From the NCBI RefSeq assembly GCF_058153355.1, contig NZ_CM177019.1: a stretch of 64,000 nucleotides of DNA, one strand, 5' to 3'. The notes beneath the pieces are model-generated. The model saw only the letters and a list, made by a program, of their open reading frames with translations, searched no databases and was not told the DNA's origin. Position numbers and translations under genes: made by a program. Shown piece by piece: positions 4,782 through 44,080 of the stretch; the stretch's first letter is position 1; each line of letters begins with the position of its first letter.

Positions 4782-4812
4782 TACGTTCGCCAAACGCTGA
4801 ATAAATCATCAC

Positions 4813-4847
4813 GCCCGCCAGGTAAGCCCACCTGGCGGGCTTTTTTA
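4813..4847 (+). terminator. Rho-independent terminator after citT
   Basis: GC stem cccgccaggt/acctggcggg followed by TTTTTT at 4841-4846. Confidence 0.8.
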
Positions 4848-4894
4848 TGATTTAATAGATAGTATTCAGTGTATGTATGAGTTCCACACCCATT

Positions 4895-7125: not shown

Positions 7126-7246
7126 CAGACAAAAATATTTATACCGCCCTGCCCGGAGCCATCCCGGCGGGGCTTTTTATTGCAATAAAAAAGCCGCCAG
7201 GTTTGACCCCGGCGGCTAAGCAATTGCAGGTGAATCTTACTTCTTC

Positions 7247-15012: not shown

Positions 15013-16101
15013 ATGCCTCACAATCCTATCCGCGTCGTCGTTGGCCCTGCTAACTACTTTTCTCATCCCGGCAGTCTCAATCACCTGCATGATTTTTTCA
15101 CTGATGAACAACTTTCTCGCGCAGTGTGGATCTACGGTGAACGTGCACTTGCCGCGGCGCAAACCAAACTTCCATCGGCGTTTGAACTGCCAGGAGCAAA
15201 GCATATTTTGTTTCGCGGTCATTGCAGTGAAAGCGATGTGCAACAACTGGCGGCTGAGTCCGGTGACGATCGCAGCGTAGTGATTGGCGTCGGCGGCGGC
15301 GCACTGCTCGACACCGCGAAAGCCCTCGCCCGCCGTCTCGGTCTGCCGTTTGTTGCCGTTCCAACGATTGCCGCTACTTGCGCTGCCTGGACACCGCTCT
15401 CCGTCTGGTATAACGATGCCGGACAGGCGCTACATTATGAGATTTTCGACGACGCCAATTTTATGGTGCTGGTGGAACCGGAGATTATCCTCAATGCGCC
15501 GCAAGAATATCTGCTGGCGGGAATCGGTGACACGCTGGCGAAATGGTATGAAGCGGTGGTGCTGGCCCCACAACCAGAAACGTTGCCGCTAACCGTACGG
15601 CTGGGGATTAATAATGCGCAGGTCATTCGCGACGTCTTGTTAAACAGTAGCGAACAGGCGCTTGCCGATCAGCAAAATCAGCAGTTAACGCAATCATTTT
15701 GCGATGTGGTCGATGCGATTATCGCCGGAGGCGGAATGGTCGGTGGTCTGGGCGATCGTTTTACGCGTGTGGCGGCGGCCCATGCCGTGCATAACGGTCT
15801 GACCGTTTTGCCGCAAACCGAGAAGTTTCTCCACGGCACCAAAGTCGCCTACGGAATTCTGGTGCAAAGCGCCTTGCTGGGTCAGGATGATGTGCTGGCG
15901 CAATTAACCGGGGCGTATCAGCGTTTTCATCTGCCGACCACGCTGGCGGAGCTGGAAGTGGATATCAATAATCAGGCAGAGATCGACAAAGTGATTGCGC
16001 ACACCTTGCGTCCGGTGGAATCCATTCATTATCTGCCAGTCACGCTGACACCAGATACTTTGCGTGCAGCGTTCGAAAAAGTGGAATCGTTTAAAGCCTG
16101 A
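15013..16101 (+). CDS. hcxA: Iron-containing alcohol / hydroxycarboxylate dehydrogenase
   Basis: 362-aa ORF, glycerol-dehydrogenase-like fold (GVGGGALLDTAKA); position matches ybdH (hcxA). Confidence 0.8.
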   Translation: MPHNPIRVVVGPANYFSHPGSLNHLHDFFTDEQLSRAVWIYGERALAAAQTKLPSAFELPGAKHILFRGHCSESDVQQLAAESGDDRSVVIGVGGGALLDTAKALARRLGLPFVAVPTIAATCAAWTPLSVWYNDAGQALHYEIFDDANFMVLVEPEIILNAPQEYLLAGIGDTLAKWYEAVVLAPQPETLPLTVRLGINNAQVIRDVLLNSSEQALADQQNQQLTQSFCDVVDAIIAGGGMVGGLGDRFTRVAAAHAVHNGLTVLPQTEKFLHGTKVAYGILVQSALLGQDDVLAQLTGAYQRFHLPTTLAELEVDINNQAEIDKVIAHTLRPVESIHYLPVTLTPDTLRAAFEKVESFKA

Positions 16102-16110
16102 CGTACAAAT

Positions 16111-16308
16111 TTAGCAGCAGCGCGCGCCGCCTTTTCCACCGTAGCGCGCGTCCTGCCGCTCACGGAAAAACTCCTCGTAGGTCATCGGCGTTTGATCGGG
16201 ATGGTTAACCCGCATATGTTCGACATAGTTGTCGTAATCAGGCATACCAATCATCAGCTTCGCCGCCTGACCTAAATATTTTCCGGCTTTTGCCAGTGAA
16301 TCAAACAT
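16111..16308 (-). CDS. ybdD: Small DUF466 protein co-transcribed with cstA
   Basis: 65-aa [36 protein letters not shown]... immediately downstream of cstA on the same strand. Confidence 0.75.
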
Positions 16309-16450
16309 CAATACCTCCGGTAATCAGGTTGCTGAGAGAGTGCATTAATAGCTATCAACGCGCTCGGTCAGTCCCCTCGCCCCACCGGGGAGAGGGTTAG
16401 GGTGAGGGGGAACCCTAGGCACTACGCCAACATCCCCCCTCACTCTGACT

Positions 16451-18556
16451 TTAGTGCGCGCCTTTCGCCTGCGCCACGATCTCCTCGACATTTTCCGGCA
16501 TTGGCTCATACGGCGTTTCTTTCGCCGTTGGCTTCGGATCTTTCAATGCTGCCAGTGCCGTCTTAATCGAGAACAGCGCCAGAACCACCACAACCACCAT
16601 AAAGAAGATGGTTAATCCGGCATCCAGACGGTTGTTGAACACCAGTTGCGCCAGTTGTGACTCAGTATACTGCGACGGAATATTGCCGCTGTCGATCATT
16701 GCCTGGAACTTGTTAGCAATCGCCAGAAAACCGACTTTCGCATCCGGGCTAAACGCTTTCTGCCAGCCTGCGGTCAGGGTACAAATCAGTAGCCAGGCCG
16801 TTGGTACCAGCGCCACCCAGGCGTAACGTTGACGTTTCATTTTGAACAGCACCACAGCACAAAGCATCAGCGCCATCCCTGCCAACATCTGGTTGGCAAT
16901 ACCAAACAGTGGCCACAGAGTGTTAATACCGCCCAGCGGATCGACCACGCCCTGATGCAGAAAGTAACCCCAAGCCAGCACGCACAGCGCCGTTGCCAGC
17001 AGGTTAGCAGGCAGTGAATCAGTCCGTTTCAGGCCCGGAGAAACCACGCCCAGCAGATCCTGCAACATAAAGCGCGCAGCACGCGTACCCGCATCCACCG
17101 CCGTCAGAATAAACAGTGCTTCAAACAGAATGGCGAAGTGATACCAGAACGCCACATCCATCATGCCACCCAGCGCGCCGTGCAGAATGTAGGCCATCCC
17201 CACCGCCAGGGTCGGCGCACCGCCCGCACGGGAAATGATCGACTGTTCACCCACTTCGCTGGCAATCTGATTTAACGTATCTGGCGTAATGCTAAAGCCC
17301 CAGCTACTCACTACCTGCGCAGCAGATGCCACTACATCCGCCGTCCCCGCCGGAGCCAGCACCGCCATCGGGCTGTTCATCGCGAAGTACACGCCCGGAT
17401 CGATGATACAGGCAGAAACCAGTGCCATAATCGCCACGAAGGATTCCATCAACATCCCGCCGTAGCCGATAAAGCACGCCTGACCTTCGTTCGCCAGCAT
17501 CTTCGGTGTGGTGCCGGAAGAGATCAGCGCATGGAAGCCAGACACCGCGCCACAGGCGATAGTAATAAACAGGAACGGGAACAGATTACCGGTCCATACC
17601 GGACCAGTGCCATCTACAAATTTGGTCAGCGCAGGCATGGTCAGCGTCGGACGCATAATCAAAATGCCTACCGCCAGACCGACGATAGTCCCGATTTTCA
17701 GGAAGGTAGAGAGGTAGTCACGCGGAGCCAGCAGCAACCACACCGGCAGAACCGCCGCCACAAAACCGTAACCCACCAGCATCCAGGTCAGCTGCACGCC
17801 GGTAAAGTCAAAGTACGGTGCCCAGGTCGGGCTTTCTGCCACCCAGCCGCCAGAGATAATGGCGAAAATAAGGAATACCAGGCCAATCACCGACACTTCC
17901 CCAATGCGGCCCGGACGCAGATAGCGCAGGTAAATCCCCATGAACAGCGCCAGCGGAATGGTGAACGCAACGGTATACGTTCCCCACGGGCTATGAGTCA
18001 GGGCTTTCACCACGATCATCGCCAGTACTGCAAGGATAATGACCATGATCATAAAGCAGGCCACCAGCGCAATCACCCCGGCGGTTGGCCCCATCTCTTC
18101 TTTAACCAGCTCGCCCAGCGAGCGACCGTCACGGCGCGTGGAAACAAACAGCACCATGAAATCCTGCACCGCACCGGCGAGAACCACTCCGGCAAGTAGC
18201 CAGATCATCCCCGGTAGGTAGCCCATTTGCGCTGCCAGTACCGGCCCCACCAACGGGCCTGCTCCGGCAATAGCCGCAAAATGGTGACCGAACAGCACTT
18301 TCTTGTCCGTCGGCACATAGTCCAGCCCGTCGTTATGGCGCACCGCTGGCGTCATACGCGTCGGGTCAACCGCCAATACATTTTTGGCGATATAAAGACC
18401 ATAAAAACGGTAAGCGATCAGATAGATACAGACCGACGCCACCACAATCCACAGCGCGTTGATCTGTTCCCCACGATTTAAAGCAATGTATCCCAGAGCA
18501 AATGCTCCCATTACAGAGAGCACTGTCCAGACGAGGTATTTCCCTGATTTGTTCAT
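16451..18556 (-). CDS. cstA: Carbon starvation protein A (peptide/pyruvate transporter family)
   Basis: 701-aa polytopic membrane protein; matches CstA; located between ybdD and entH as in K-12. Confidence 0.9.
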   Translation of the reverse strand: MNKSGKYLVWTVLSVMGAFALGYIALNRGEQINALWIVVASVCIYLIAYRFYGLYIAKNVLAVDPTRMTPAVRHNDGLDYVPTDKKVLFGHHFAAIAGAGPLVGPVLAAQMGYLPGMIWLLAGVVLAGAVQDFMVLFVSTRRDGRSLGELVKEEMGPTAGVIALVACFMIMVIILAVLAMIVVKALTHSPWGTYTVAFTIPLALFMGIYLRYLRPGRIGEVSVIGLVFLIFAIISGGWVAESPTWAPYFDFTGVQLTWMLVGYGFVAAVLPVWLLLAPRDYLSTFLKIGTIVGLAVGILIMRPTLTMPALTKFVDGTGPVWTGNLFPFLFITIACGAVSGFHALISSGTTPKMLANEGQACFIGYGGMLMESFVAIMALVSACIIDPGVYFAMNSPMAVLAPAGTADVVASAAQVVSSWGFSITPDTLNQIASEVGEQSIISRAGGAPTLAVGMAYILHGALGGMMDVAFWYHFAILFEALFILTAVDAGTRAARFMLQDLLGVVSPGLKRTDSLPANLLATALCVLAWGYFLHQGVVDPLGGINTLWPLFGIANQMLAGMALMLCAVVLFKMKRQRYAWVALVPTAWLLICTLTAGWQKAFSPDAKVGFLAIANKFQAMIDSGNIPSQYTESQLAQLVFNNRLDAGLTIFFMVVVVVLALFSIKTALAALKDPKPTAKETPYEPMPENVEEIVAQAKGAH

Positions 18557-23613: not shown

Positions 23614-23753
23614 ATTTTCGGTCGCTAACCTAAAAGCAAACGAGCACTATGTCAACTCTTGAGGTAACGCAATCTGCAAGTCGGGGTTGCATCTGCTTGT
23701 GGTTACAATGAAAATGAGAAGCATTAACTTCATTAATAACAGGAAGCTGATTT

Positions 23754-38039: not shown

Positions 38040-38140
38040 CGTCGTTCATGCCGGATGCGGCGTGAACGCCTTATCCGGCCTACAAAAATCTTGCCAATTC
38101 AATATATTGCAGGATAGTGTAGGCCTGATAAGCGTAGCGC
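38040..38140. repeat. REP (repetitive extragenic palindromic) elements
   Basis: gccggatgcggcgtgaacgccttatccggcctac and an inverted partner (aggcctgataagcgtagcgcatcaggc) between fepA and entD. Confidence 0.7.
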
Positions 38141-44001: not shown

Positions 44002-44005
44002 TTAA

Positions 44006-44040
44006 AAAACCGCTCTCATCGAATGGATGAGAGCGGTTTA
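44006..44040. terminator. Bidirectional terminator between convergent ybdG and pheP
   Basis: Perfect palindrome aaccgctctcatcgaatggatgagagcggttt flanked by A/T runs; REP-like sequence follows. Confidence 0.75.
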
Positions 44041-44080
44041 GGATGGTTGACATCGTTTTGTCGGATGTAGCGTGAACGCC

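Follow-up and report, generated by a model that had tools for sequence, protein, structure and literature searches.

We found that the GC-rich palindromic stretch between cstA and ybdD in E. coli is a copy of the repeat BoxC, also called PIT or TMECO. We analyzed a 64-kb stretch of DNA, referred to here as the window, in which this BoxC copy is wholly intergenic and lies inside the 142-nt cstA-ybdD spacer (16309-16450). The reading that we favor overall, with a probability of roughly 0.8, is that a BoxC unit of type A mm, together with an inverted-pair spacer and what is left of the partner copy (its third block), makes up a passenger repeat that would act as a barrier in the RNA. The family itself is already known, having been described since the 1990s and characterized biophysically between 2000 and 2015, and the observation is real but ordinary.

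The element lies between two genes for pyruvate uptake

The window comes from E. coli: the best match to a 361-nt query (16200-16560) is 99.4% identical, and an 801-nt query (16000-16800) finds 99.1% identity. The upstream gene of the pair, cstA (16451-18556, minus strand), encodes the pyruvate/proton symporter CstA; we identified it as an open reading frame that is annotated as cstA in a near-identical E. coli locus, with a TAA stop codon read from the sequence at 16451-16453 (minus strand). The downstream gene, ybdD (16111-16308, minus strand), encodes a 65-residue small protein of the YbdD/YjiX family, and its open reading frame corresponds to a 198-nt coding sequence annotated in the near-identical locus (WP_000460431.1). 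The ybdD ATG, also read from the sequence, is at 16306-16308 (minus strand), and a GGAGG Shine-Dalgarno sequence lies upstream of it at 16314-16318 (minus strand). This Shine-Dalgarno sequence belongs to the 45 nt of locus-specific spacer sequence at 16309-16353. The K-12 RefSeq annotation lists no feature in the cstA-ybdD spacer.

Pyruvate uptake requires both the CstA and YbdD proteins (PMC5847655; that paper contains no data on co-transcription or on the spacer). From this shared requirement, from the lack of a promoter-like site between the genes, and from the basal spacers of 14-63 nt found in other genera, we infer that cstA and ybdD are co-transcribed. The preliminary description of this DNA had placed the element in a 3′ UTR; its position is instead intercistronic, 3′ of cstA and 5′ of ybdD.

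On the other side of ybdD, the gene hcxA (plus strand, ending at 16101) converges with ybdD (minus strand, ending at 16111) across a gap of 9 nt (16102-16110). With so short a gap, any read-through from hcxA must cross ybdD and the BoxC spacer in antisense (plus strand, 16111-16453). A Rho termination region that Adams et al. 2021 (PMC7815308) reported in K-12, at 631994 (-), is antisense to the 3′ end of cstA and just beyond the BoxC element.

The spacer contains a complete BoxC unit of type A mm

We searched the window with an nhmmer profile built from 10 K-12 copies at 5 other loci, with the cstA-ybdD locus excluded. The sole significant match in the 64 kb was at 16354-16412 (E = 1.1e-13, 46.7 bits). 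This match, together with alignment to K-12 pairs, defines a complete BoxC (PIT/TMECO) unit of type A mm on the plus strand, consisting of a leader (16354-16373) and a core (16374-16409). BoxC units of 50-56 nt are given in the literature, and the 59-nt profile match fits this reported length. The G-rich three-block strand of BoxC is here the plus strand, which is the template strand for cstA-ybdD.

A regular expression parses the core (16374-16409, plus strand) as CCCTCGCCCC-ACC-GGGGAGAGGG-TTA-GGGTGAGGGG, within the string cccctcgccccaccggggagagggttagggtgaggggg located at 16373-16410 on the same strand. Block 1 (CCCTCGCCCC, 16374-16383) is the pyrimidine arm of the core hairpin and occurs unchanged in 13 of the 23 K-12 copies that Table 1 of PMC4666352 lists. 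It is joined by loop 1 (ACC, 16384-16386) to block 2 (GGGGAGAGGG, 16387-16396), the purine arm, with which it forms one G.A mismatch, the "mm" of type A mm. Loop 2 (TTA, 16397-16399) defines type A, and it leads into block 3 (GGGTGAGGGG(G), 16400-16410), a mirror repeat of block 2 that has been proposed as the Hoogsteen strand of a triplex. Read in reverse, block 3 is GGGGAGTGGG, which equals block 2 (GGGGAGAGGG) save for one T opposite A. All of these parts lie on the plus strand.

The "A mm" rows in Table 1 of PMC4666352 show exactly the blocks and the TTA loop of the window, and type A mm is the commonest TMECO class (PMC4666352). BoxC was the name given to the motif on its first description in the 1990s; the Maher laboratory later found it again and called it the PIT (potential intrastrand triplex) element (PMC4666352). 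Holder et al. 2015 (PMC4666352), who cite the earlier BoxC reports and Hoyne & Maher 2000, 2002, tabulated 23 copies in MG1655 and named the motif TMECO.

The 22-mer core has 1 copy in the 64-kb window and no match in 100 shuffles of the window. Across complete E. coli genomes the picture is one of dispersal: an 82-nt query matched 73,954 places in 5,418 of 5,426 genomes, with a median of 15 and a maximum of 26 per genome (3-7 matching places per genome in the closest relatives of the window). The preliminary description had suspected a dispersed enterobacterial intergenic repeat of the BoxC type, and the exact type A mm pattern, the profile score and these counts bear that out; the element is far from unique in E. 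coli genomes. The copy shows every defining feature of BoxC that can be tested: it shares with other BoxC/PIT/TMECO elements the blocks and TTA loop, a conserved leader, an intergenic position, multiple copies, an inverted-pair architecture (spacer of ~25 nt) and a hypervariable locus. It differs from them in that its partner copy is reduced to the third block and its loop 1 is ACC, where TTT, TCT or TCC is usual.

Searching Rfam at a permissive threshold, we found no family that reaches its gathering score. The best, Antizyme_FSE (21.2 bits against 40, E = 0.36), is a chance match to a C-rich/G-rich hairpin.

The K-12 copy between cstA and ybdD is missing from the 23 tabulated MG1655 copies (PMC4666352), and the names cstA, ybdD and ybdH do not occur in the supplementary text of that paper. 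In K-12 the third block of this copy is degenerate (GGGTGAGAGGG), whereas that of the window is intact. The degenerate third block is probably the reason why the K-12 copy was left out of the published table. The present copy adds a locus to that table. For annotation, the spacer should be labeled a BoxC repeat region and not a terminator, REP or RIP. The feature itself is of little importance, and BoxC/PIT/TMECO is still without a demonstrated function.

The inverted partner is reduced to its third block

We aligned the window to the K-12 inverted A+B pairs at fepB-entC, ygfF-gcvP, alx-sstT and hrpB-mrcB. Homology extends beyond the core to the ~20-nt leader (…GCGCTCGGTCAGT), a ~24-nt central spacer and a distal CCCTCAC block. 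The central spacer of the inverted pair (16411-16433, plus strand), defined by this alignment, forms the loop of hairpin 1 in the RNA; it is homologous to the K-12 A+B-pair spacers in length and partly in sequence, and in many E. coli it contains an 11-nt tandem duplication.

Past the central spacer lies CCCCCCTCACTC (16434-16445, plus strand), which alignments with the K-12 pairs, E. coli alleles and Escherichia outgroups identify as the third-block remnant of the inverted partner. The remnant breaks off 5 nt short of the cstA stop codon. It makes up the 5′ arm of hairpin 1 in the mRNA, and it is the only repeat-derived piece retained in every Escherichia allele. Since the partner copy ends at its third block, the repeat-derived DNA is 16354-16445. 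An element at 16312-16450, as first proposed, amounts to essentially the whole spacer (16309-16450), but the repeat-derived part is confined to the shorter interval. Nor is it a single repeat of ~90 bp: it is composed of the 59-nt BoxC unit, the central spacer and a fragment of the inverted partner.

The spacer RNA folds into two hairpins without promoter or terminator signals

In the mRNA sense, the RNA of the whole spacer folds with a predicted energy of -68.1 kcal/mol (z = -4.5), and none of 200 shuffled sequences folds as well. RNA of the opposite (plus) strand is similarly structured (-64.6 kcal/mol, z = -4.6). The stable structure on which the preliminary description depended is therefore present.

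Two hairpins account for the fold in the mRNA. Hairpin 1 (16400-16445, minus strand) begins 7 nt after the cstA stop codon and has a 12-bp stem in which GUGAGGGGGGAU pairs with GUUCCCCCUCAC (-29.3 kcal/mol, z = -4.2); its 3′ arm is the complement of BoxC block 3. Hairpin 2 (16372-16398, minus strand) is the BoxC core hairpin, CCCUCUCCCC-GGU-GGGGCGAGGG (-17.2 kcal/mol). A 5-bp helix, GUCAG/CUGAC (16445-16449 with 16367-16371), closes both hairpins into one domain of -50.8 kcal/mol (z = -4.0).

Neither hairpin is followed by a U-tract, the sequences that come after them being UAACCC and ACUGACC. A consensus scan of 15900-16800 returned 0 terminator-like sites on either strand and 0 sigma-70 promoter-like sites. 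The element is thus not a simple terminator, as had been suspected from its appearance. PIT elements were reported to have neither promoter nor terminator activity (Hoyne & Maher 2002, as cited in PMC4666352).

The cstA-ybdD spacer is hypervariable in E. coli

We compared the spacer across 5,419 E. coli genomes using the anchored 361-nt query (16200-16560), and took span lengths from 60 evenly sampled records. The spans in this sample were 331, 346, 360-362, 372, 391, 394 and 400-401, representing at least 7 length classes. Query coverage fell below 80% in 1,187 of the 5,419 genomes (~22%), a group that includes all 13 of the records with the 331 span among the 60 sampled. The BoxC core is absent from AHB18 and KKa019, the examples that we fetched of the 331 and 346 classes, respectively. 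About two thirds of the sampled records have a K-12-like span, and the REP-less 142-nt form found in the window is rare (~3% of sampled rows).

Eight aligned alleles, with spacers of 112, 127, 142, 143, 153, 172, 175 and 182 nt, form a mosaic of four variable parts: the 11-nt tandem duplication in the loop, the BoxC core, a REP palindrome and small deletions. The K-12 allele (182 nt) combines the core with a REP next to BoxC, the 11-nt duplication and the degenerate third block. None of the eight alleles departs from the others in the 5′ arm of hairpin 1 or in the GGAGG Shine-Dalgarno sequence. The core is missing from the two shortest, which retain a simple stem-loop, GAGTGAGGGG...CCCCTTACTC (-22.9 kcal/mol). 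The existence of core-less alleles in E. coli, which would account for about 22% of genomes, indicates that the BoxC core is dispensable.

The cstA-ybdD locus is hypervariable, as PMC4666352 reports for TMECO loci generally; the matched-control comparison, in which TMECO loci were more variable than control and random-hairpin loci, is that of Holder et al. (PMC4666352). The same paper describes a "palindrome effect" at paired TMECO sites, which our alleles resemble: two short E. coli alleles and other Escherichia have lost parts of both copies, leaving a stable stem-loop. The window allele differs in that it is intermediate, having one intact copy and one reduced copy. The polymorphism could alternatively reflect relaxed constraint on any spacer and not instability caused by the element.

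The locus is of modest value as a clean natural allelic series (core plus REP, core only, and stem-loop only) between two pyruvate-uptake genes. Together with the RNA 3′ end mapped in K-12, this series makes it a convenient place to test for an effect of BoxC at the RNA level.

Stem-loops of unrelated sequence occupy the same slot in other genera

Among 80 genome records with a ybdD locus, the spacer could be measured in 77, and we folded the 74 Enterobacteriaceae spacers of at least 40 nt. The common state in other genera is a 47-63-nt spacer with a GC-rich stem-loop of genus-specific sequence. These stem-loops arise from unrelated sequences, among them a two-block CCCTCTCC/GGAGAGGG type, REP-like hairpins and Kluyvera-type hairpins; the Atlantibacter spacer has a terminator-like hairpin with a T-run. 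Three species have a cstA-ybdD spacer of 14-20 nt with no hairpin.

Complete BoxC copies, often in pairs, occupy the slot in Enterobacter, Leclercia, Lelliottia, Phytobacter, Pluralibacter, Pseudocitrobacter and Cedecea. In most of these pairs the first blocks face each other, whereas in Escherichia the third blocks do, and this difference in orientation suggests separate events or rearrangements. Within Escherichia, E. albertii, E. whittamii and another species have the stem-loop and a REP and lack the core; all of the Escherichia outgroups that we examined carry this reduced form plus REP.

In the mRNA sense, 66 of the 74 spacers fold with z < -2, and in 59 species the sense strand gives the more stable fold, against 13 in which the antisense strand does (Wilcoxon p = 1e-7). 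The median z is nearly equal on the two strands, -3.4 and -3.2 across these 74 spacers from related species, so base composition explains much of the asymmetry in stability. As a control, we folded 13 other same-strand spacers of the window, and 7 of them likewise reach z < -2.

The CCCTCTCC...GGAGAGGG hairpin is found in 47-63-nt spacers of Citrobacter, Salmonella arizonae and Kosakonia, where its two halves look like BoxC blocks 1 and 2, with no counterpart of block 3. Such a hairpin might be what is left of a decayed BoxC, or it might serve as a seed from which BoxC is acquired by gene conversion.

Two of the records appear under unexpected names. A 465-bp contig labeled Streptomyces sp. 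DH24 encodes a 98% identical YbdD, and in a contig of a "Bacillota bacterium" metagenome-assembled genome, the cstA-ybdD spacer is Enterobacter-like and includes a BoxC copy. Each of these has the look of contamination or mis-binning in a public assembly.

An RNA 3′ end maps just past the structure in K-12

In the Term-seq data of Adams et al. 2021 (PMC7815308), an RNA 3′ end classed as "orphan" is listed at MG1655 632098 (+), 84 nt upstream of ybdD, with 1,686 reads. The entry is on the second sheet of supplementary file 1 of PMC7815308, which stands between the LB OD 0.4 and M63 sheets; from this position, the condition is presumably LB at OD 2.0. By coordinate mapping, the end is the G in …GGGGACUGACCGAG|CGCG, and its equivalent in the window is 16363 (minus strand), although the measurement was made in K-12 and not in the window strain.

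The distance from the core hairpin to the K-12 end is 10-11 nt, and that from the closing helix is 4 nt, the end being downstream of both. This geometry and the absence of a U-tract fit a stall of a 3′-to-5′ exonuclease better than intrinsic termination. The peak at 632098 is a single, low-count signal from one condition, in a K-12 allele that differs from that of the window.

At five other K-12 BoxC loci, the Term-seq tables of PMC7815308 list no BoxC-adjacent 3′ end, which indicates that an RNA barrier is not a property of the family at the sensitivity of this dataset. The 3′ end listed at gcvP corresponds to the terminator of gcvP itself.

A separate, strong 3′ end lies in the fepB leader at K-12 624680 (-), with ~103,000 reads in LB at OD 0.4 (Adams et al., PMC7815308). 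A distance of 4 nt separates it from the type B BoxC copy that lies downstream in this 5′ leader, so this RNA ends just before the repeat and not after it.

BoxC as a probable passenger repeat and putative RNA barrier

Taken together, we propose that BoxC would be essentially a passenger repeat here, with no required function at cstA-ybdD. At the DNA level, its palindromic and mirror-repeat structure may favor insertions and deletions in the spacer. During transcription, RNA polymerase would read through BoxC, and the two-hairpin domain of the RNA would most likely act as a barrier to 3′-to-5′ exonucleases. Such a barrier could leave a cstA-only RNA ending ~10 nt past the hairpin, which might modestly skew the levels of cstA mRNA relative to ybdD mRNA. 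We propose this skew by analogy with REP elements in other operons.

REP/BIME elements can act as intercistronic mRNA stabilizers, as in malE-malF, and stem-loops of the REP type that lack U-tracts can block 3′-to-5′ exonucleases and create RNA species of the upstream gene only. Like them, BoxC is a dispersed GC-rich palindrome that is transcribed in operons and forms stem-loops without U-tracts, and the K-12 3′ end, 10-11 nt past the hairpin, fits REP-like barrier behavior. Unlike them, BoxC belongs to an unrelated sequence family, and the five other BoxC loci are without nearby 3′ ends. We know of no demonstration of exonuclease-barrier activity for BoxC. An effect on mRNA stability, as the preliminary description envisaged, is in our view plausible, and the one datum in its support is the K-12 Term-seq 3′ end.

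Alternative explanations for the element

Selection might instead favor a stable RNA stem-loop in this slot, one that sets the ratio of cstA to ybdD expression, in which case BoxC would have been recruited or retained as a functional element. The prevalence of strongly folded spacers (66 of 74 Enterobacteriaceae spacers with z < -2, built from unrelated sequences) points this way, as do the BoxC copies or pairs in seven other genera, arranged unlike those of Escherichia. Hairpin 1 is kept in all eight E. coli alleles and in 4 other Escherichia species, even where the core is gone; the stem of the short allele includes a G.U pair, which can form in the mRNA sense alone; and both the greater stability of the sense strand (59 species against 13) and the K-12 RNA 3′ end just past the structure agree with a role in RNA. 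Structured spacers are common, however, as the 7 of 13 other same-strand window spacers with z < -2 show, and with medians of -3.4 and -3.2 the strand asymmetry is largely explained by composition. The species are also related and not independent, three of them have 14-20-nt spacers with no hairpin, and the position and size of the hairpin are not conserved. We therefore hold selection on the slot to be a tentative possibility, and we are more doubtful of its long-term form, in which a stem-loop uncoupling cstA from ybdD in mRNA stability would have been selected and BoxC recruited or retained independently in several genera. If true, this long-term form would give BoxC, which has had no known function in 30 years, its first concrete role at the RNA level, as an exonuclease barrier. 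An intrastrand purine-motif triplex on the G-rich plus strand, stalling replication or repair and thereby causing rearrangements in place of the hairpins, is likewise doubtful. The sequence would allow it, because reversed block 3 matches block 2 save for the T opposite A, an allowed triad, and BoxC copies with such a block match form a triplex in vitro by CD and NMR (PMC4666352); the excess variability of TMECO loci over control and random-hairpin loci (PMC4666352) and the at least 7 length alleles at cstA-ybdD would also be expected from it. Yet in vivo DMS footprinting detected no stable triplex, and the double-stranded form is B-DNA (PMC4666352). Several of the indels at cstA-ybdD are ordinary, namely the 11-nt tandem duplication and the gain or loss of REP, and the G-rich strand is the template strand for cstA-ybdD and, from K-12 replichore geometry, probably also the leading-strand template and so less exposed.

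The remaining explanations are much less probable than these. Strong GC-rich hairpins starting 7 nt after the cstA stop codon, and an RNA 3′ end mapped in the K-12 spacer, are what an intrinsic (Rho-independent) terminator of cstA would produce, with ybdD transcribed separately. Such a terminator is very improbable, given hairpins that lack U-tracts, a scan with 0 terminator-like sites, a 3′ end that falls 10-11 nt past the stem and not in a U-run, and the cited lack of terminator activity in PIT elements (per PMC4666352); moreover, ybdD has no promoter-like site, and the 14-63-nt basal spacers of other genera leave no room for a promoter. The strong structure of the spacer might also suggest a small RNA gene or another curated structured RNA, but with no Rfam family at threshold, no promoter-like site and a sequence that is a multi-copy repeat, the chance of this is slight. 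To our knowledge, no discrete, independently initiated transcript from this element has been described. RIP and BIME are built from REP (PU) palindromes, and a RIP also requires that two REPs flank an IHF site. In K-12, the spacer does contain a canonical REP palindrome next to BoxC, but the window spacer contains none, the sole close match in the window being at 38050-38079, and the sequence here comes from another family; an identity as REP/BIME or RIP is refuted for the window allele, and the earlier label "RIP-like" should be dropped with it.

Other repeats in the window and in K-12

At fepB-entC, the window has a clean empty site (23724-23726), where K-12 has a 183-bp segment carrying an inverted BoxC A+B pair (TMECO 7 and 8). 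The four convergent K-12 A+B pairs (hrpB-mrcB, fepB-entC, ygfF-gcvP and alx-sstT) share ~150 nt of homology. On the A side it reaches ~35 nt upstream of the core (...GATGACAA...), and on the B side it extends ~15 nt beyond the core (...GAAAACGGTGC). This shared homology across four pairs indicates that the A+B pair behaves as one composite repeat unit. The ~150-nt composite may be, we presume, the 152-bp repeat that the original paper on the K-12 genome called "RSA".

The 183-bp segment is bounded by TAA on both sides in K-12, at the one site examined, and we considered the composite as a MITE with a TAA target duplication. We dropped this idea as unsupported: at this one site the 183-bp indel is longer than the ~150-nt shared unit, which also argues against precise excision at the ends of the element.

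The REP palindrome GCCGGATAAGGCGTTCACGCCGCATCCGGC, a 30-mer of the K-12 cstA-ybdD spacer, has an exact copy in the window at 38050-38079 (minus strand), the only match within 3 mismatches in the 64 kb. Four other spacers in the window are strongly structured (4782-4876, 7126-7246, 44002-44080 and 61302-61483; z of -3.5 to -6.0 against mononucleotide shuffles), and these are probably terminators or REP-type repeats.
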